Positions 38 through 9,083 of a stretch of 18,257 bases of DNA are shown here, piece after piece. Within the stretch, counting starts at the first letter, position 1. The number at the start of each line of letters is the position of its first letter. The stretch is taken from the UHGV virus genome UHGV-0068637; one strand, written 5' to 3'. The translations under genes were made by a program, and so were the position numbers. The notes beneath the pieces were generated by a model, which made no database searches, was not told the origin of the DNA, and saw only the letters and a program-made list of their open reading frames with translations. Source of the stretch: a virus.

Positions 38-3000
38 TTATTCTTCGCTTCCGGTCAACTGACTGATAAGCGCTTCAAGTTTTGCTATCCGCTCATCCAT
101 TGCAGTAACGTCAGCTTTCAGGCTTGCGTTAACCTCATTCATTGCGGCAACGTTAGCTTTTAAGTTTGCGTTCTCCTCTTCCATTACAGCAACGCTGGCT
201 TTCAGGCTTGCGTTCTCCTCTTCCAGTTCGGTGACGCGATCATCCGTTTCGCGTGCCACCTGGACAAGTAAACCAGTAACCGCCGCATAGTCAACGCTGA
301 GGCACTTCATTTCCTCGCGTAAGATGTTGCCGTCAGTTGTTGGCCCTTGTAGCTCCTTGCCGTAAAGAGTGGTAAACGCTATCGCTTCAGGCAGCGCGTC
401 CATTACTTCCTGTGCAATAACACCAGCGTAAGGAAGGCCGTCATCTTTAAACGTGTAGGTATACCCGTTCATCTTACGGATGGATCCGGTGGCGTCACCT
501 ATGACCTTAATGTTGTCTTTAAGGCTCTGGTCAGAAGTTTGATACAGCGTCTTACATGTAAGATCGCCGTTAAAGTCAAATTTTCTGTTACCTGCTGCAT
601 CTTCCTGAGCATAGAACATGTATTGTTTGCTGTTACCAACCTCAAAAACGCTTTCCCTTCCGCTTTCACCCCATACCCTTACACTCCACGACTGCGCCGA
701 GGTGTCAGAGTTCCTTAAAAGAAGGCGCGGGCCGCTATCGCTGTTTTTAAGGATAACGTCGCCTTTTGCGGTTACGTCACTGACTGTGGTTAGCGTATTA
801 ACAGACACATCCTGATTTCTTCCTGAAACAACAATCTGACTCCATGCCGTCCAATTACCGTTCTCACAATAGCGAACGTATATTTGCTTCGTGTCTGTGC
901 CGACAAGTGTTTGTATGTTTGTGTAGTCTGTATCACTAATCTTGCGAATGGATTCTACACGCAACAAGAAGTTACCGCCTACACCGCTAGGCTTGTTGGC
1001 AATAGTGTTACCACCGCCTGCACTTGCGCATTGATAGTATTTAACAGAACCTTTATCAGATGCCTTAATAACAACGTTGTTAAGATCAATCTCCTGGTTT
1101 TCAATAGGTTGCGGATAGATAGGCCCGTACATACCTGCACTGAATGTGGCAAGGGCGGAAAACGTCGTTTGACCACCTACCGTCACACCGCTATCAAGCA
1201 CTGCTTGCGTGATAACTTTGCTGTTTGTTTTGTGATCGGGATTGTTACCAAAATACAGATCACCGCTGCCATCAATACCGAGGTATTTTTGAACAACGCT
1301 ATCAACCTTGAAGCCAATGGATAGGTTTTCAGAATACCCTGTACGCGTTAAAAGTAACGGTGTATGCTGTTTACCGCTGATTTTTAACGTGTTCTCCGTA
1401 GTTTCCGTGTTGTCGTTGGTGAACTCAGCTGTACGAGATGTTACTTTATATAGGATCTTTGCGCTGTTCGCCTGGATGCTTCCATCATGACGAACAACAA
1501 AATCACCTGTAGCCGTGCCGTTAGTGGTATTTGCCCGAATGCGGACTTCGCCACCCTCTTCGGAATTGGTAGGCGCCCAGATAACACCGCGTTCAGACTG
1601 GTCCTCATTCTGGAACCATAAATGGGCGGTTCCACTTTTTGAACGCAGATAGATCGACGGTGTTCCTTTAAGGATCGTCAGGTCGCCAGTCATGGTGTCA
1701 CCACCTTTTTTAACCTGAGCATCGTTGGTTACGTTGCCAAGTCCAACGTCAGCTTTAGACGGCTTGTATTTGGTTCCGTATAGAGTGTTGATCTGGAAAG
1801 TACCATCTTCAAGCGATCTGTCGTTACCAGAGAAAATCCTGACATTACCTGTGCCGTAGTCGATATTGATCGCAGACCACGTATCGCCGCACCGCGAGAA
1901 TACACCAGAACCGTGGCTGTGAAATGTGGCTGTGCTACCTTTTGGCTTACCGGATCTCCAGAAACACCCACCTTGCGCTTTCAGAGCTTTCAGTAAATCC
2001 TGATCGGTCATGTAACCCGTTGTGTCAGACCACGTTATCCCAGAACCACCAACACCGTAATTGCCTTTAAGCAGGGCATCTTGAAGGCCCAAATCTGCCT
2101 TAGTCGGCTTGTTTTCCTGGTCGTAAATCCTTATTGCAGGGCTTTCGATATATCCCTCTGGGGCGGTTTGTTGTTCGACATAGCCTTCTGGAATGTACAG
2201 TTCAGTCATGCCAGTCTGTGCCAGCACAGCAACCCTTGCGTCCTTAATGAATGCCCGCTGATAGCCCCAGACTTCAAAATATCCATCGCCCGGAACAATG
2301 CCGTAACGCATTTTGTTTTGTGCGTCCAGCCCTGCAGATCCGAGGCGGCGAACACCCAAAAACTTAGTTATGTTTGCACTGGTTATTCCGCCTGCAGTGG
2401 TGTAATTGCGAGCGGAGATCTCGATAAAGTCAATATTGCCGTAAGTCTTGCCGTAGTTACATGCGTTAGTAATCATTAGCGTCAGGTGGCAGTCACTAGC
2501 GCCCGGATCGGTCATTTTTGCGATCTTCACATAACGGGCATAATCAAAGGTATTGATAGGCCATTTACATTGAACCAATGCGTTGTTAGACCTTACTATC
2601 TGATTCAGATATTCTTGCGCCCTGTTCTCTGATGTTTTGGCTTTGGTTTCGCTTGTTTTTGCTGCCGTTTCGCTTGCCTTAGCGTTGGTTTCTGATGTTT
2701 TCGCGGCGGTGGCGGAGTTTGCTGCCGCTGTTTTTGATGCTGCTGCCGCGTTTTTGTCTGATTCTGTTTTTTGAGCGTTGGCAGTTGATTTCGCCGTTTC
2801 TGCGCGAATGTTGGTAAGAAGTTGTTCCATTTGACCATCACCGCCGAACTCATTCCACCACTCTACGGCGGAGGCGATTTCTGTTTCTTTGCTCTGGTAG
2901 TAACGCAGGGTTTCAGCTACGTCCTGAGCAAGCCCATCAACTGAGATCGAATCAGATAGCAGGATGCTAAATTTTGTCCCAGCAGGGATTGCGGGGTTAG

Positions 3001-3184
3001 CTGCTGGCGTCACTGACAGTTCAGTGCCGCTTTTAATTTCCGTGATGGTAAAGATCTGCACAGGATTGCCAACAGCAATGAGCGTGCAACCTACACGAAT
3101 AAGGGAAAGCGGCGCGGAGAAGTTTGTGCCCGTGCCTTTAACAGTGTTGCCATTGATGGCAATTGTTCCAGTTGTGTAAATCAT
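38..3184 (-). CDS. Side tail fibre protein with C-terminal intramolecular chaperone (peptidase S74-like) domain
   Basis: 1048-aa ORF, ATG at 3182-3184 with GGAG upstream. The Ala/Lys/Thr-rich 'AAKTSETNAKASETAAKTSETKAKTSE' region resembles lambda Stf / T4 fibre collar repeats. The C-terminal ~150 aa carries the 'TSDQSLKDNIKVI...GYTYTFKDD...GVIAQEV...LPEA...SVDY' signature typical of self-cleaving chaperone domains (endosialidase / T5 pb1 type), followed by a heptad coiled coil (ENASLKASVAVMEEENANLKANV). Confidence 0.8.
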   Translation of the reverse strand: MIYTTGTIAINGNTVKGTGTNFSAPLSLIRVGCTLIAVGNPVQIFTITEIKSGTELSVTPAANPAIPAGTKFSILLSDSISVDGLAQDVAETLRYYQSKETEIASAVEWWNEFGGDGQMEQLLTNIRAETAKSTANAQKTESDKNAAAASKTAAANSATAAKTSETNAKASETAAKTSETKAKTSENRAQEYLNQIVRSNNALVQCKWPINTFDYARYVKIAKMTDPGASDCHLTLMITNACNYGKTYGNIDFIEISARNYTTAGGITSANITKFLGVRRLGSAGLDAQNKMRYGIVPGDGYFEVWGYQRAFIKDARVAVLAQTGMTELYIPEGYVEQQTAPEGYIESPAIRIYDQENKPTKADLGLQDALLKGNYGVGGSGITWSDTTGYMTDQDLLKALKAQGGCFWRSGKPKGSTATFHSHGSGVFSRCGDTWSAINIDYGTGNVRIFSGNDRSLEDGTFQINTLYGTKYKPSKADVGLGNVTNDAQVKKGGDTMTGDLTILKGTPSIYLRSKSGTAHLWFQNEDQSERGVIWAPTNSEEGGEVRIRANTTNGTATGDFVVRHDGSIQANSAKILYKVTSRTAEFTNDNTETTENTLKISGKQHTPLLLTRTGYSENLSIGFKVDSVVQKYLGIDGSGDLYFGNNPDHKTNSKVITQAVLDSGVTVGGQTTFSALATFSAGMYGPIYPQPIENQEIDLNNVVIKASDKGSVKYYQCASAGGGNTIANKPSGVGGNFLLRVESIRKISDTDYTNIQTLVGTDTKQIYVRYCENGNWTAWSQIVVSGRNQDVSVNTLTTVSDVTAKGDVILKNSDSGPRLLLRNSDTSAQSWSVRVWGESGRESVFEVGNSKQYMFYAQEDAAGNRKFDFNGDLTCKTLYQTSDQSLKDNIKVIGDATGSIRKMNGYTYTFKDDGLPYAGVIAQEVMDALPEAIAFTTLYGKELQGPTTDGNILREEMKCLSVDYAAVTGLLVQVARETDDRVTELEEENASLKASVAVMEEENANLKANVAAMNEVNASLKADVTAMDERIAKLEALISQLTGSEE

Positions 3185-3361: not shown

Positions 3362-3610
3362 ATGAAAAACGTGTTCAAAGTGGTTTTGTTCGCCACGGCT
3401 GTTGCTCTTACTGGTTGCGCTGTTGACAAGGAGGCTGCATTGCATAACCTGCCGAATAGCGGAGTGATTCCACAAGATGTCGTCTATGATGGCAGCGGTC
3501 ATCTTGTCTATGACACTGAAAAACTGCCGTATACTGGTCAATGGTGTCATGAACTTGATCACAATATGCGCCGCATCGGTAGCCCTTCTAACTGTGTAGC
3601 TAACTACTAA
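3362..3610 (+). CDS. Small secreted lipoprotein, Cor-like superinfection-exclusion candidate
   Basis: 82-aa ORF with a signal peptide and lipobox (MKNVFKVVLFATAVALTG|C), a good RBS, and an intrinsic terminator immediately downstream. It is opposite-strand to, and sandwiched between, the J-like gene and the tail fibre, the position where cor-type lipoprotein morons sit in phi80/N15/T1-like phages. The function is inferred from context only. Confidence 0.65.
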   Translation: MKNVFKVVLFATAVALTGCAVDKEAALHNLPNSGVIPQDVVYDGSGHLVYDTEKLPYTGQWCHELDHNMRRIGSPSNCVANY

Positions 3611-3613
3611 AAG

Positions 3614-3644
3614 AAAACCCCGCGCGAAGCGGGGTTGTTTTTTA
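3614..3644. terminator. Bidirectional rho-independent terminator (lipoprotein gene / J gene convergent)
   Basis: Hairpin CCCCGC-GCGAA-GCGGGG followed by TTGTTTTTT on the plus strand, with an A-run on the other side giving a T-tract on the minus strand. Lies between the convergent stops at 3610 (+) and 3642 (-). Confidence 0.75.
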
Positions 3645-6600
3645 TATCCATGTTCCTGAACTTCTTGTTATAAGTATTAAACCTGGTTTTCTTATTGCTG
3701 CATTAGATGTATTGGTAAAGTTTTCCGTCACCTCTACTGTAATTGTTGGGTATGTGAGGCCAGATACACAGTGCACCGCGACAGTTGACATTGCTGGGGT
3801 TGATGCTGGCCTTTCTATATTAATTGTTTTTTGGTGTCCGCTTATATTTATAGTTACATTGATGCGAGAAGATTCACTATATGTATAGTATGACAAATCA
3901 TACGGAATCATAACGTAAACTGTTTTTGATAAACTTGATGAACTTGAATCAAGATAAGTTTTCGAAACGCGCCTGCTGCCATTTCCCCTCATTGACGGAA
4001 ATACATCCTCGTTTATCACTGACATACTTGCTACGTCACCAACAAAACTTGTAGCTTCAACTGCTCCAGTAAATTTACCGCCAGTTGCGTAAACAGTACC
4101 GTTAAACACACCAGCATAAGCGTATACCGTACCCCTTACGGTTACCTGGTTAAATACTGCGTCACCGGCTTTATCTATCGCCCATCCTGTACCGTTTTCC
4201 CAGCTGTAATTAACTGACTGTATTCGATCAGCTATTTTGGCGGAGTTGATAGTTCCGTCCTTAATAAACGCTTCTCTTACATACATTGCGCCATTGGTGA
4301 CATAGAAAGGCGTTATATATGTGCCGTTTGCTTCCGTCATCAACACGAAGCGGTCAACAAGGAAGATACACTGCGACTGGAAGTTAGTACCATCACCAGT
4401 GAGGCCAAGCGACATACCTGTCGCGTACGTCTTGCCGTAGTTGTCGGTTGCCAGCTTGATAGAGTACGACGCATCAACATTGCCTTTGAAGTCGGTCAAT
4501 GCTTTGGATGTCGTTTCTATTGCCGTTTTATTCCCGTTAACGGTCACTGTTAGCTGATCGATTTTCGTTGATAACGCCTCGTCAGCCGTAGCCATCGCCT
4601 GCGACCATTCAGTGATACTTGCGTCTACCAGTTCGAAGGACGCTGAGATCTGGCTGAATTTTTCAGCGTTTGATTCCTCATGCGTAGCTAGTGCCGTTGA
4701 TACCTCAGATACTTTCGAGTTGATTTCACCGGTAAGCGATGCGCTAAGGCCGCTTATTGCGTCTGCGCGTGCTTTTGTTTCGTCGGCGATAGCCTTGTCC
4801 ATCCTGGTAATGTTGCTCGTTACCTTGCTGTCAAGCGTTGAGATTGATGCATTCACACCGCTGATTGCTTCGCCGCGTGCACTGGTTTCGTCCGCAATGG
4901 CTTTATCGAGGCGGTTAATGCTTGCTTCCGTTTTCTTATCAAGATCTGTGATAGATGCGTTCACACCACTAATGGCTTCCGCTGTTGCCTTTTTCTCTTC
5001 CGCCATAACCTTGTCAATGCGGTCGATTTTCGCATTGGCTTCCCTGATCCCTTTCTTGTATTTGGCTGAAAGGGCAACATGCGTGTTGGTCTGAGCGATT
5101 GAGTTATTGATAAGTGCAATCGAGGTATTCTGCATACTTGCTTTGGTCTGGTTGATTTCATCGCTGTTTTTCTCAACGTTGTTTTCAACCGCACCAAGTT
5201 CGGCGCTGATACCGGATATTGCCTGCGCACGGGCGCTTGACTCGTCGGCAATGGCCTGATCCAGGCGCTTGACGCTGGCGTTTGTGTTGTTCTCAAGCGT
5301 TGTTAAGTCTGCTTTGACCTCTGTTATTGCGTCACTTCTTGCCTTCGTTTCGTCTGATATTGCTTTATCAAGGCGGGAAACGCTGGCGTCTGTTTTCTTG
5401 TCAAGGGTGTCGATCGATGCCTTCACGCCACTGATGGCCTGTGCGCGTGCGCTGGCCTCGTCAGCGATTGCCTGGTCGAGTCTGTTCACCTCTGATTCAG
5501 TGTTGCCTTCAAGCGTGCTGATGCTTGCATTAACGCTGCTGATAGCGTCAGTGCGTGCCTTCGTTTCGTCTGCAATCGCTTTATCAAGGCGATTAACGTT
5601 ACTTGTTACCTTGCCGTCAAGTGTGGAGATTGATGCCTTCACACCATTGATGGCTTCGGTTCTCGCGCTCGTTTCGTCGGCAATAGCCTTATCAAGGCGG
5701 CTTATGCTTGAATCGGTTTTCTTATCAAGTGCTGATACTGAGGCGTTCACCCCATTGATAGCTTCTGAGCGTGCGCTTGTTTCGTCTGCAATAGCTTGAT
5801 CCAGACGTTTAACGCTGGCGTCTGTTTTCTTGTCAAGTGCTGAAATGCTTGCGTTAACGTCGCTGACAGCCTGGGTTCGTGCGCTCGATTCATCGGCGAT
5901 TGCCTGGTCCAGACGTTTAACGCTGGCGTCAGTTTTCTTGTCAAGATTGTCTATTGAGGCGTTCACACCGTTAATAGCTTCGGCGCGTGCGCTGGCCTCG
6001 TCAGCCACTGCACGTTCCACGCTAGAAATCTGACCTTTAAGGTTGGAATCCATCGTGTTCATTTCTGCCGTGATGGTTTCCAGTGATTCCGCTGTCGCTT
6101 TTTTCTCTTCAGCGATAACGTTGTCAATACGGTCAATTTCCGCTTTCGTTTCCGTCCTGCCTTTCTTATACTGGGCGGTAAGGGTTACGCGCGTGTTTGT
6201 CTGTGCAAGCGAGTTGTTGATAAGCGCCAATGAAGCGTTTTGCAGGCTTGCTTTTGCCTGTGCCAGTTCGCTGTCAACTTTTTCGCTTGACACTTCTAAT
6301 AAGTCGATTCTGGACTCATGCTGACCAATATCATCGGCGTTCTCTTTAACTTTTTTGTAGAGATCTTCCGTTTCTTTTTTAAGCGTATCGGTGTCAGCTT
6401 TTATTGTTCCTGTTTCCGTGATCAGATTGTCAGTGTCAGTCCTTAAATCTTCAGTTATGTTGTTCAGGTTGTCGGTTTCGGTCCTTAAATCTTCAGTTAC
6501 GCTGGTAAGGTTGTCAGTTGTAGTTTTGAGGCTGTCAGTAGCAGTTTTCAGTTCTTCCGTGACACCATCAATGACATCGGCGCGGTCGCCAAGATCTTTG

Positions 6601-9083
6601 ATGTCACTAATCATATCTTTGAACTGCTCAGACTCCATGACGTCCTTCATCACGTAGTCGCTGATTTCGTCGAAGTTTTCAGTCGGTTTACCTGATGCCT
6701 CAACGAAGTCTGACACACCAAAGGCATTGCGCGTGCGCACATAGACGTAATAGGTGCGGCCCGTGTTCATGCCGCCAAACGTCCACTGATAACCACGTCC
6801 GGTGTATTGTGCCTTAGTGGTCACTGATGCCGGATCTGTGATTTGATTTTCACCAGCGAAATAGAACTCATAACTAGTGTCAGTGGTGAGCGTTGTTCTG
6901 CTAATCGGGTAAACTGTGGCCTGAAATACACCAGGAACCCAGTTGACACCTATCGGGGCCGCTGGCGCACCAATAACCAGGTCCACAATGCTTTCCGCAC
7001 CCTTCATGCCCGTGTCGTTTCTGCCACGGATGCCTAACGAATAGGTTCCCGCATCAATGCCATAAAAATCATGGCTGTAATTAGTGGTTTCGTAGTATTT
7101 AACCACCGCTCCCGCTGTATTGTATACGCGGATCTCAAAGGTAAGACGATGAGTTGTTGTCATCGTTTCCCATGTTGCGCGACATTGAACCGTTTCGGAT
7201 CCAACGTTCATCACTTTCAGGTTTTCAATGTTAGGCACGCGGAAGTGATTGAGCGTGTCGTTGTTGACTTCAAAGACTGCACCTTCATCAACTACAGCCT
7301 GTTTGTGAGGATCGTGCTGTGCCGCCTCTATGGTGTACACGCTGTTGTTTTCAGTTTCCGCAACGCTGACGATTCGACATAACACGGGTTTAGCTGCGTC
7401 TGTTGACACGGCGAACACAGTACCGTTACGAATCCATGCAGGGGCGGATGCAAGGGTAATTTGGTTCACGTTAACACCAGTGATCTGATGTTTTTTAAAC
7501 TTGCCATCACTGTCAAGCAGGCTGATGGTATCACCAGGGGCGATATATTCAGAGTCAACATTATCTACAGTGATAACCCTGCCACTGTTTGCCACGATGC
7601 GACCGCCCAAACGAGCGCCTGCGCGGTTATTGTCGAGTATCTCGATAATATCACCAGGGGTGAAGTGAATCGCGTCACGGGCCATTTTAAACGTGAATTT
7701 TGAGGGTTCGCGTTTTGCTGTTTCTATCAGCCATTTGCCAGCGCGGTAAGCCTGCCCGCGTGACGTGCAACCAAAAGCCTCCAACGTGGTTTCGTTGTAA
7801 CCATCGCGGGCGATCAGTTCATCATCTGCTACGTATTCTTTTGATTGTTCCCAACCGTTTTCCGGGTCAGTCCATGACACAATCACAGCGTTGTAAGATT
7901 CCGCGCGGGCGATACTTGAACGAGTAAATGCGCCATCAACGACGTTTGCATTCGTGATGGTGGCAATTGGATCTTGCGGTGCATCAATCATCACCGTAAG
8001 GCGCTGCCCGTCCCATAACGCGATACCACGGAACATGCCTGCAATGTTGTCCAGCAAGTCGCGGGCGCTCATTTGCTCAGTGATGTAAGCGTTAAGCGTC
8101 ATGCGTGGTTCAAGGCCGCCGTAACCGTCGTTTACCAACTGGTCGCAGTATTGAGAAAGCACATATAATGCGCCATCATCAACGTCAATGTAACCGGCGT
8201 GGCGGGTAAGCCCGAAGCGTTCATTTTTCACCAGATACCGGAAAAGCCATGCAGGGTTGTTGGTGTATGCCTTTTTGAAGCCACCAAGCCATAAACCTGA
8301 GTATGTGCGTGTTTCCGGGTCGTAGTTATCAGGCACGTCAACAATCAGGCCGCGCATGTGATAGGTGCGTGTCGGCGTGTCGGTATACTGATCGTGGTCA
8401 ATTACCGCGCCTGCTACAGCGGTGTGAGGATAAGACAAGTTATCGTCTATTATCTCGCTGTAACTGCTCCACCTGGTGTCATTGCGAAGTAGATCGCTTT
8501 TACTGTCTGGCGTTACGCGACGAACGCGAATATCAAACGGTTTTTCATCCGGCGCTTGGATGATGTGCGCTTCCATATACTCGCCGCTTTGTTTACCAGG
8601 GCCAATGGTAATATCTTTGACTAGTGACCACGTTGTTGACGATGATGGCTTAACATCAACCATCAACACAACAGATGTATTGTATTGATTGCCCTTGTCA
8701 TCTGACTGAACCAGAGAATCAACGCCAAGATTCAGCCTTACGCGGTTAACGTTTGGATCTGAAACGGTCCTGATTATTGGCGTATCGTGAGTCACTTTTG
8801 CGTTAACAATAACGGTTGATTCAATGGCGTTGAAGCCGTTGATTGGTGACTGGTCAGCCGTACCATTACGCCACGCCACGCTAACGCCAGGGACCGATGT
8901 GCCGCCGTTGGCGTCAGTGATTGGGCTGTCATTAAGCATTACGCTGTTTAATGGCGCTTTCTGGTTTACAGGGCCGTAGATTGGGCCTTCGCTGAGAATG
9001 TCCAAAACACGATAAAACTGTTTATGAAACAGGTTATCGTTTAATAATGTTGGTGTTTTGGCTTTGCCGCCGCCGCTACTCAT
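3642..9083 (-). CDS. J: Host specificity / central tail fibre protein (lambda J family) with large coiled-coil repeat insertion
   Basis: 1813-aa ORF with AGGAGA RBS. The N-terminal ~800 aa is collinear with lambda J ('ILSEGPIYGPV', 'NPAWLFRYLV...RFGL', 'LSQYCDQLV.DG.GG.EPRMT.NAY', 'EAFGCTSRGQAYRAGKWLI'), followed by FN3-like segments. The C-terminal ~300 aa is a J-like receptor-binding region. About 650 aa of repeat-rich alpha-helical sequence sits in between. Confidence 0.9.
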   Translation of the reverse strand: MSSGGGKAKTPTLLNDNLFHKQFYRVLDILSEGPIYGPVNQKAPLNSVMLNDSPITDANGGTSVPGVSVAWRNGTADQSPINGFNAIESTVIVNAKVTHDTPIIRTVSDPNVNRVRLNLGVDSLVQSDDKGNQYNTSVVLMVDVKPSSSTTWSLVKDITIGPGKQSGEYMEAHIIQAPDEKPFDIRVRRVTPDSKSDLLRNDTRWSSYSEIIDDNLSYPHTAVAGAVIDHDQYTDTPTRTYHMRGLIVDVPDNYDPETRTYSGLWLGGFKKAYTNNPAWLFRYLVKNERFGLTRHAGYIDVDDGALYVLSQYCDQLVNDGYGGLEPRMTLNAYITEQMSARDLLDNIAGMFRGIALWDGQRLTVMIDAPQDPIATITNANVVDGAFTRSSIARAESYNAVIVSWTDPENGWEQSKEYVADDELIARDGYNETTLEAFGCTSRGQAYRAGKWLIETAKREPSKFTFKMARDAIHFTPGDIIEILDNNRAGARLGGRIVANSGRVITVDNVDSEYIAPGDTISLLDSDGKFKKHQITGVNVNQITLASAPAWIRNGTVFAVSTDAAKPVLCRIVSVAETENNSVYTIEAAQHDPHKQAVVDEGAVFEVNNDTLNHFRVPNIENLKVMNVGSETVQCRATWETMTTTHRLTFEIRVYNTAGAVVKYYETTNYSHDFYGIDAGTYSLGIRGRNDTGMKGAESIVDLVIGAPAAPIGVNWVPGVFQATVYPISRTTLTTDTSYEFYFAGENQITDPASVTTKAQYTGRGYQWTFGGMNTGRTYYVYVRTRNAFGVSDFVEASGKPTENFDEISDYVMKDVMESEQFKDMISDIKDLGDRADVIDGVTEELKTATDSLKTTTDNLTSVTEDLRTETDNLNNITEDLRTDTDNLITETGTIKADTDTLKKETEDLYKKVKENADDIGQHESRIDLLEVSSEKVDSELAQAKASLQNASLALINNSLAQTNTRVTLTAQYKKGRTETKAEIDRIDNVIAEEKKATAESLETITAEMNTMDSNLKGQISSVERAVADEASARAEAINGVNASIDNLDKKTDASVKRLDQAIADESSARTQAVSDVNASISALDKKTDASVKRLDQAIADETSARSEAINGVNASVSALDKKTDSSISRLDKAIADETSARTEAINGVKASISTLDGKVTSNVNRLDKAIADETKARTDAISSVNASISTLEGNTESEVNRLDQAIADEASARAQAISGVKASIDTLDKKTDASVSRLDKAISDETKARSDAITEVKADLTTLENNTNASVKRLDQAIADESSARAQAISGISAELGAVENNVEKNSDEINQTKASMQNTSIALINNSIAQTNTHVALSAKYKKGIREANAKIDRIDKVMAEEKKATAEAISGVNASITDLDKKTEASINRLDKAIADETSARGEAISGVNASISTLDSKVTSNITRMDKAIADETKARADAISGLSASLTGEINSKVSEVSTALATHEESNAEKFSQISASFELVDASITEWSQAMATADEALSTKIDQLTVTVNGNKTAIETTSKALTDFKGNVDASYSIKLATDNYGKTYATGMSLGLTGDGTNFQSQCIFLVDRFVLMTEANGTYITPFYVTNGAMYVREAFIKDGTINSAKIADRIQSVNYSWENGTGWAIDKAGDAVFNQVTVRGTVYAYAGVFNGTVYATGGKFTGAVEATSFVGDVASMSVINEDVFPSMRGNGSRRVSKTYLDSSSSSLSKTVYVMIPYDLSYYTYSESSRINVTINISGHQKTINIERPASTPAMSTVAVHCVSGLTYPTITVEVTENFTNTSNAAIRKPGLILITRSSGTWI
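4730..6040 (-). repeat. In-frame 108-bp tandem repeat array (about 10 copies, 36-aa unit) inside the J-like gene
   Basis: The motif 'tcaag...gcgcgtgcgctggcctcgtcagc' recurs with exact 540-bp (5 x 108) spacing, e.g. 5401 vs 5941 and 5451 vs 5991. The protein unit is 'DKKTDASVKRLDQAIADESSARTQAVSDVNASISAL' and variants. The array is split into two blocks (about 2.5 and about 7.5 copies) by a duplicated ~250-bp spacer segment. Confidence 0.85.

Follow-up and report, generated by a model that had tools for sequence, protein, structure and literature searches.

Genomic context and domain organisation of the J gene

The window analysed here, meaning the whole stretch of 18,257 nucleotides (nt) from the UHGV virus genome UHGV-0068637, harbors on its minus strand a J gene (3642-9083), the open reading frame (ORF) for a 1813 amino acid (aa) central tail fibre involved in tip attachment and host specificity. 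A segment of this gene recurs 1110 nt away, and we consider this repeat most probably to be an old duplication of higher order, which is in frame and lies in the α-helical shaft of the phage J protein. Four Pfam domains, all exceeding their gathering scores, are located in the proximal part of the protein, namely FNIII-A_GpJ (aa 88-214), Phage-tail_3 (aa 335-492), Ig_J (aa 609-707) and Ig_J_second (aa 709-811), while a Phage_Tail_Tip domain (PF09327, DUF1983; 4110-4523, minus strand; aa 1521-1658; e-value: 3e-38) follows distally and matches λ gpJ after its helical shaft. Residues 1-858 of λ gpJ (8iyk) align to J aa 1-851 (e-value: 4e-179) and residues 838-1001 to J aa 1515-1688. The C-terminal part of this protein (3645-4109, minus strand; aa 1659-1813) forms a variable receptor-binding region, with 7-100% identity among relatives.

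Genes encoding a tape measure protein (TMP_3), a minor tail protein (Phage_min_tail), Phage_tail_L, an NlpC/P60+JAB protein and I are located upstream of J in the same orientation, while downstream of it come an antisense ORF for a lipoprotein and the gene for a 1048-aa side fibre that bears an S74 chaperone domain. The annotated mEp phages likewise have the order L, K (NlpC/P60), I, J, antisense lipoprotein and side fibre. The domain series, the distal tip and the position in this cluster all fit a central tail fibre of the gpJ family, and the 1813-aa protein is on these grounds assigned to it.

The 1110-nt repeat

Comparison of the window against itself, by means of a repeat finder and blastn, aligned positions 4977-5150 with 6087-6260 over 174 nt without gaps (75.9% identity; e-value: 8e-32). 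The offset between the two copies is exactly 1110 nt, or 370 codons (10 x 36 + 10), and not the 1111 bp given in the initial annotation of this DNA, which had described a segment of ~250 bp recurring at ~75% identity. The recurrence and its level of identity stand, but the specific match is restricted to 171-174 nt (57-58 codons), and the intervals 4950-5200 and 6060-6310 proposed in that annotation include flanks without specific match. The peptides quoted there correspond to aa 945-999 and aa 1315-1369 of the J protein. Shuffling the codons of the J gene 20 times gave at best 46.6% identity over 174 nt, and this, together with the e-value of 8e-32, rules out chance similarity.

The duplicated segment, here termed the A unit, has a copy number of two in the 18-kb window by blastn self-comparison. 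Both copies are followed by 36-aa units, in agreement with the 108-bp repeats previously reported to trail each copy: the first by one degenerate, seven good and one partial unit (aa 1000-1304), and the second by a pair of good units with degenerate ones behind them (aa 1370-1441 onward). A self dot-plot, which had been suggested as a check on the duplication, contains the 1110-nt off-diagonal beside the 108-nt periodicity, as well as a series of 108k+30 diagonals (offsets 462 to 1110), along which the second array of 36-aa units matches the first. The strongest of these lies at offset 786 (76.2% identity over 235 nt).

Repeat tiers and predicted structure of the shaft

The shaft spans aa ~812-1520, with the second Ig/FNIII domain before it and the distal β domain and receptor-binding tip after it. 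In λ, FNIII-2 and the β-prism central straight fibre are separated by the α-helical shaft (AHS), a short three-helix bundle (PDB 8iyk, 8xci; PMC11101478). Since λ gpJ aligns to both sides of the repeat block, the block, which measures ~665 aa between the λ-equivalent positions and ~690-700 aa between the flanking Pfam domains, represents an expansion at the place where λ has this shaft. Three repeat tiers build up the shaft: heptads of 7/14 aa, a 36-aa unit (R), and a module, occurring twice, which consists of a non-periodic A unit of 57 aa and a trailing array of R units.

All of the elements are encoded on the minus strand and are given here in the direction of translation. The proximal heptad region (6369-6578; aa 836-905) comprises 7/14-aa repeats of the type xTDNLxx, for which Tandem Repeats Finder (TRF) reports periods of 42 and 21 at 6422-6548. 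It is very acidic and varies in copy number, with ~nine copies here and ~three or four in phage mEp013 and locus L033 of the comparison set introduced below. A linker (aa 906-942) leads into the first A unit, A1 (6087-6257; aa 943-999), which shares 100% protein identity with copy 1 of many relatives. Next are a degenerate 36-aa repeat, r0 (5979-6086; aa 1000-1035; hidden Markov model (HMM) score: 17.5 bits), with 42-58% nt identity to the other units, and array 1 (5223-5978; aa 1036-1287; TRF period 108; HMM scores: 65-74 bits), made up of R1-R7 of the subtypes D D D K E D T. A partial repeat and linker, p8 (5148-5222; aa 1288-1312), provides a context that is kept upstream of every second copy of the β and γ types defined below. 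The second A unit, A2 (4977-5147; aa 1313-1369), is a divergent β-type allele and is followed by array 2 (4761-4976; aa 1370-1441), with R9-R10 of the subtypes D K, and a distal degenerate helical segment running into the β domain (4524-4760; aa 1442-1520). Among themselves, the R units of the window share 55-76% nt identity.

The duplication may extend further upstream of the A units, where VKADLTTLENNT resembles IKADTDTLKKET and VENNVEKNSDEINQ resembles LEVSSEKVDSELAQ. This likeness is suggestive and statistically not significant: local alignment of aa 870-942 with aa 1240-1312 gave a score of 42 (z = 1.7), with 38/500 shuffles as good, and profile-profile comparison (hhalign) of 26 against 24 segments from the upstream regions likewise fell short of significance (E = 0.03-0.04).

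There is no proline among the 709 residues of aa 812-1520. Hydrophobic residues recur with a period of 3.54 in the heptads and of 3.60 in the R arrays, from which the 36 residues of an R unit would correspond to ten helical turns, while the hydrophobic peak at 3.5-3.6 is absent from the A units. A single-sequence AlphaFold2 (AF2) model predicts a near-continuous helix over aa 812-1500, with a predicted local distance difference test score (pLDDT) of 64, and departs from helix in two places only, aa 929-931 and, within A2, aa 1335-1341. Stretches of low confidence are found at aa 921-935, 958-971 (in A1), 1149-1157 (in R4) and 1328-1341 (in A2). With a 23-sequence alignment, AF2 predicts an unbroken helix over aa 1366-1510 and then β structure, the mean pLDDT of 10-residue blocks being 85-98 to ~aa 1494 and dropping toward the C-terminal end. 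As an extended helix, aa 813-1500 are computed to measure ~100 nm, one R unit ~5 nm and 334 aa ~49 nm.

Architecture polymorphism among related J genes

Over most of its length, the J gene is 83-87% nt identical to those of six temperate mEp coliphages and phage MagusPhagus. Prophage J genes that match the window number ~500 in Escherichia coli, and the best match of the whole window in complete genomes of this species shares 88.8% identity. Within the 18-kb stretch, the similarity of the tail-tip region and the architecture together place the window in the mEpimmI (mEp021-like) group. A total of 47 J genes, from mEp021-group coliphages and IMG/VR contigs, were compared, 39 of the loci having been added by an A-unit scan of IMG/VR; L-numbers refer to loci of this set. 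Profiles of the A and R units built from the window were applied to all 47.

Two A units are present in 35 of the 47 J genes and one in the remaining 12, two of which are 3′-truncated, while none contains three. The comparison of relatives for module number that had been suggested thus recovered single- and two-module forms but no three-module form. The number of R units ranges from 1 to 8 after the first A unit and from 0 to 4 after the second. Phages mEp044, mEp021 and mEp554 share the layout A r DDKEDT / A DDEK, whereas mEp010 has A r DDT / A DDEK, mEp013 has A r DT / Aγ, mEp515 has A r DDK and MagusPhagus has A r xKK. Locus L014 has the layout A r DDDKEDTK, and L011, L025 and L031 are window-like, with 7+2 R units. 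The arrays leading into the distal domain all end in a K-type unit, or directly in a γ-type A.

J genes in which the last 150 aa are at least 90% identical differ in shaft layout. One such tip cluster includes two-module forms of 1620, 1656 and 1692 aa, in steps of 36 aa, and a single-module form of 1517 aa. Near-identical tips on different shafts show that shaft architecture and tip assort independently. The C-terminal tip of the window shares 16-30% identity with those of the six mEp phages.

When 1.84 billion representatives were searched exhaustively with HMMER for the A unit, one family representative, P0031 (A + γ-type A), was recovered, the other matches being one 94-aa fragment and one unrelated repeat protein, and among these representatives no protein with three copies of the A unit was found. 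With one true family representative, the A unit is in this search confined to this J family. Word-indexed protein searches returned at least 12 proteins with the repeat block and at least 24 with the distal part, which is too shallow for a deep alignment.

Age and selection of the duplication

The second A copies fall into three types. In the β type the protein is nearly equal to copy 1 and is followed by R units, the γ type is characterised by ...AQSKMSTVIEAKYRKGQ..., and in the δ type, found in L045 and L046, A plus r is duplicated. The β copies share on average 87% nt identity among themselves and 80% with first copies, and for 12 of the 13 β-type second copies the nearest neighbour is the β copy of another phage, L031 being the exception. 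Within the genomes of the relatives, copy 1 and the β-type copy 2 differ by a nonsynonymous divergence (dN) of 0.055-0.07 and a synonymous divergence (dS) of 0.3-1.5, the latter ~0.7-1.5 in most; for A1 and A2 of the window dN is 0.15 and dS 1.35. Between many orthologous first copies dS amounts to 0.23-0.9. First A copies share 91-100% protein identity in 44 of 46 relatives, L045 and L046 being lower at 75%.

Because second copies group across phages, and because dS between the copies is ~1, the duplication is old and shared: it predates, on this sequence evidence, the diversification of these phages, whose second copies are orthologous to one another. The A copies overall (dS ~1, dN/dS ~0.1) bear the signature of purifying selection at the protein level on both copies. 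The initial annotation had proposed that the insert grew by segmental duplication and then diverged. An in-frame, diverged duplicate is indeed present, but it is old and shared, and not a growth of UHGV-0068637 itself.

Recombination in the repeat block

The J proteins of mEp021 (L004; 1727 aa) and mEp515 (L006; 1393 aa) are 100% identical but for an indel of 334 aa. In the DNA this is an exact indel of 1002 nt, with 3395 nt upstream and 792 nt downstream 100% identical, and the site of the crossover can be narrowed to a 5-nt interval within two K-type R units of ~90% identity. Both phages use OmpA as receptor, while mEp010, mEp013, mEp044 and mEp554 (1504-1828 aa) use LamB (PMC11893012). Set against the J layouts, this receptor use means that module number is not tied to the receptor. 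A further event is observed in L014, the tip of which equals that of the window (100% over the last 153 aa) and which lacks the 118 aa corresponding to window aa 1277-1394, a stretch made up of the remainder of R7, p8, A2 and the beginning of R9, with a junction in register between R units. The mapped crossovers of the relatives are located in the flanking 36-aa R units, not in the A units. Both module number and R number are, from these alignments, polymorphic through in-register homologous recombination between R units. The duplication had previously been put forward as a substrate for unequal recombination, and the in-register events in relatives agree with this; the A copies themselves, at 76% identity, are a poor substrate, and it is the 36-aa repeats that carry the crossovers.

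Over its first ~97 nt, copy 2 of L031 matches copy 1 of that gene almost completely, while its remainder is of β type, and this switch points to an intragenic gene-conversion tract. The J genes of the window and L031 are of equal length, with an identity that is mosaic when compared per 60-nt stretch. They are 93-100% (mostly 98-100%) identical over aa 1-480, 901-1240 and 1461-1813, with a dip to 88-93% at aa 1541-1600, whereas a divergent allelic patch (4764-5363, minus strand; aa ~1241-1440; 66-91% per 60 nt) covers exactly R7, p8, A2, R9 and R10.

The nearest relative of the window A2 is copy 2 of mEp010 (83.6% nt identity). Against the 46 relatives A2 shares at most 80% aa identity, the best match of this allele in 5426 complete E. 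coli genomes is 84%, and no exact match to it was found in IMG/VR or GTDB genomes. The strong divergence of the second copy in the window is best explained as a replaced allelic patch, in preference to drift in situ.

A second patch that diverges from L031 was also observed (7584-8642; J aa 481-900), with 68-98% identity per 60 nt, whereas upstream of it identity is 96-100%. The distal hub, the Ig domains and the heptad region all lie in this patch, and the J gene is as such mosaic beyond the repeat block.

Interpretation of the duplicated module

In-register recombination between R units resizes the shaft by 36-aa steps or drops a whole module, as in the indels of 118 and 334 aa, with gene conversion and patchwise allele replacement adding to the diversity. 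We suggest that three J chains form a parallel helical bundle. Each R unit would add ~5 nm of reach and each module ~50 nm, such that shaft length would set the distance of the tip from the tail tube while receptor specificity remained unchanged. The A unit may represent a conserved discontinuity in the bundle, serving as a hinge, a docking site or a β-nucleation site.

Several points weigh against this explanation. The longest exact repeats in the window are 27, 23 and 23 nt within array 1 and 14 nt between the modules, and because these exact runs are short, the allele of the window, with R units 55-76% and A copies 76% identical, is a weak recombination substrate. The trimeric coiled coil is a putative state, the models being of monomers, with a pLDDT of 64 for the longer one. 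One published virion description (PMC11893012) gives tails of ~130 nm and no fibre measurements, and a shaft of ~100 nm, which would be conspicuous, is not reported there. The three-module form is absent among the 47 J genes, and the single-module forms without a T-type unit, mEp515 excepted, may be ancestral or may be products of deletion. Furthermore, the role of the A unit is one that we purely infer.

It is possible, though we regard it as the less probable course of events, that the second module did not arise by an intragenic duplication diverging in place but was joined from two J alleles through inter-genomic unequal crossover, or was imported. In the window the second module lies within a 600-nt patch 66-91% identical to L031, between flanks of 93-100% (per 60 nt), dS between the copies (~1) exceeds that of many orthologous first copies (0.23-0.9), and p8 looks like a hybrid of the start of an R unit and the sequence preceding copy 1. 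The similarity upstream of the A units is, however, not significant (z = 1.7; hhalign E = 0.03-0.04), and such an origin differs from that of an old intragenic duplication in the partner molecule alone, the product being a duplication of the same kind.

A somewhat doubtful alternative is that the repeat array is a metastable coiled coil which refolds to a β-prism on receptor binding, pulling the tail tip to the membrane and opening it. On this reading, having the module twice would give a longer stroke, and the switch could be seeded by the β-prone core present in each A unit (QTNTRVTLTAQY). The precedent is the central fibre of the F7 pyocin, where, according to a preprint, a coiled coil of 163 residues (residues 921-1083) refolds to a β-prism on target binding and the switching strands carry an SxSxxMxxLxS pattern (PMC12874032). 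Residues 914-1186 of the F2-pyocin fibre (25vf) align to J aa 1365-1642, including R9-R10, with an e-value of 1e-30, although this value is driven mostly by the Tail_Tip domain. Perfect matches to SxSxxMxxLxS number 35 in aa 943-1520, against 8.7 ± 2.9 in shuffled sequences (max 18), each R unit having one match in either orientation and each A unit four, in the order R-F-R-F. As the R units are homologous and not independent, this count is inflated and the evidence from any single unit is weak, two matches per consensus unit having an estimated chance of ~0.1 from the shuffle mean. The core of the A unit loses its α-periodicity and the AF2 model is of low confidence or broken there, yet both AF2 monomer runs returned helix only and are uninformative on switching. 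The short shaft of λ turns partly to β on LamB binding (PMC11101478), while the preprint describes λ and T5 as being without an extensive switch (PMC12874032). A conversion of ~690 residues would also be ~four times anything observed. The specific version in which these residues form a helical 'spring' ~four times the F7 length, with the A units as β-nucleation or docking sites and the modules tuning the stroke, we consider unlikely. Should the shaft switch fold as in F-type pyocins, these phages would offer an accessible E. coli model of the mechanism, with mEp021 and mEp515 as a ready-made test pair.

The A unit may alternatively be a docking site for another virion protein, such as the downstream side tail fibre, the two A units then providing two attachment tiers, which we regard as improbable. 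In the F7 pyocin, three trimers of the side fibre attach to a short stretch of the coiled coil in the central fibre (PMC12874032). The window contains a 1048-aa side-fibre gene (38-3184), and the A unit is strongly conserved, with first copies 91-100% identical in all but two of 46 relatives and dN/dS between copies of ~0.1. The F7 site is, however, an acidic gap, and it is the heptad region (xTDNLxx) that is acidic in J, not the A unit. Similar side-fibre genes are furthermore found in single-A and double-A phages. By analogy, the side fibre could dock either on the conserved A unit or on the heptad region, which is acidic.

That the similarity reflects chance or a misassembly, to which repeat-rich genes are prone in short-read data, is vanishingly unlikely, given that the repeats are too diverged to collapse (longest exact run of 27 nt), that cultured, sequenced phages have the same two-A layout, and that the identical 1813-aa protein occurs on 6 independent metagenome contigs, which excludes a one-off assembly error.

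Comparison with known systems

Phages of the mEpimmI group have been described in 2025 as having J proteins of unequal size, with 'repeats of different length (positions 950-1,475)' (PMC11893012). Their J proteins (mEp021, mEp044, mEp010, mEp013, mEp554 and mEp515) have the A and R units in common with the window, although that description leaves the repeat hierarchy, the A unit and the mEp021/mEp515 indel unresolved. The window differs from them in its 7+2 R layout, shared with L011, L025 and L031, in an unusually divergent second A unit and in an unlike tip. Compared with λ gpJ, the shaft is at the same place in a protein of the same family, but that of the window is ~690 residues long and built of repeats, while that of λ is short. 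The F-type pyocin central fibre resembles the J protein in its homologous distal region, in a long helix directly before the β domain and possibly in the SxSxxMxxLxS pattern. Relative to the pyocin coiled coil, the shaft of the window is ~four times longer, its 36-aa repeats are overt and its A module is duplicated. R-like repeats of ~36 aa (...IADETQAR..., ...IATETEALSREIDQLKAQI...), two or three in number, are also present in a 'Putative tail fiber protein' (PDB 9l9p chain S), where they align to R9-R10 and beyond; this protein is 1172 aa in total and lacks an A unit. Repeats of the R type are therefore not restricted to the mEp phages.

In-frame repeats of trimeric fibres are known to act as recombination sites changing length or tip, as for the collagen-like repeats in the host-specificity genes of Streptococcus thermophilus phages, and similar roles are played by the His-box regions of T-even gp37/38 and by the stalks of trimeric autotransporters. 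Those systems have other folds and sequences, while here the repeats form a two-level (36-aa and ~370-aa) α-helical shaft. A literature search on repeat-driven unequal crossover in tail fibres returned nothing specific. Repeat-mediated exchange of length and tip is a familiar theme in phage fibres, of which this is an ordinary but well-resolved case. New here are the three tiers of repeats, the A unit with its types, the age assigned to the duplication, the individual recombination events (above all mEp021/mEp515) and the placement in the shaft.

What emerges is a resolved map of shaft construction and resizing in the central fibre of one phage family, in which length and tip vary independently. 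Such a map is of use in the annotation and comparison of J genes, whose size differences are otherwise puzzling, and in picking splice points for host-range engineering. The natural, cultured pair mEp021 and mEp515, with J proteins that differ solely by 334 shaft residues and a common use of OmpA, could serve as a test of shaft length.

Additional features of the window

An 82-aa ORF with a lipobox (...ALTGC) is located on the plus strand (3362-3610), antisense between J and the side-fibre gene, at a position that equals that of the Lpp superinfection-exclusion lipoproteins of the mEpimmI phages (PMC11893012). A Pfam scan of this ORF returned no match. The 1048-aa side tail fibre is encoded on the minus strand (38-3184) and has a Peptidase_S74 intramolecular chaperone domain at aa 884-934. 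Its C-terminus contains 14-aa tandem repeats resembling EEENASLKASVAVM (TRF 92-225, period 42), and a 7-aa repeat rich in Ala, Thr and Lys is found near its N-terminus (TRF 2633-2692).

Within the J repeat block, two antisense ORFs are present on the plus strand, at 4612-5094 (160 aa) and 5269-5799 (176 aa), and the AT skew over 4500-6500 is strongly negative (-0.33 to -0.38). These ORFs and the skew are most likely by-products of the codon composition of the repeats, and the ORFs not genes.

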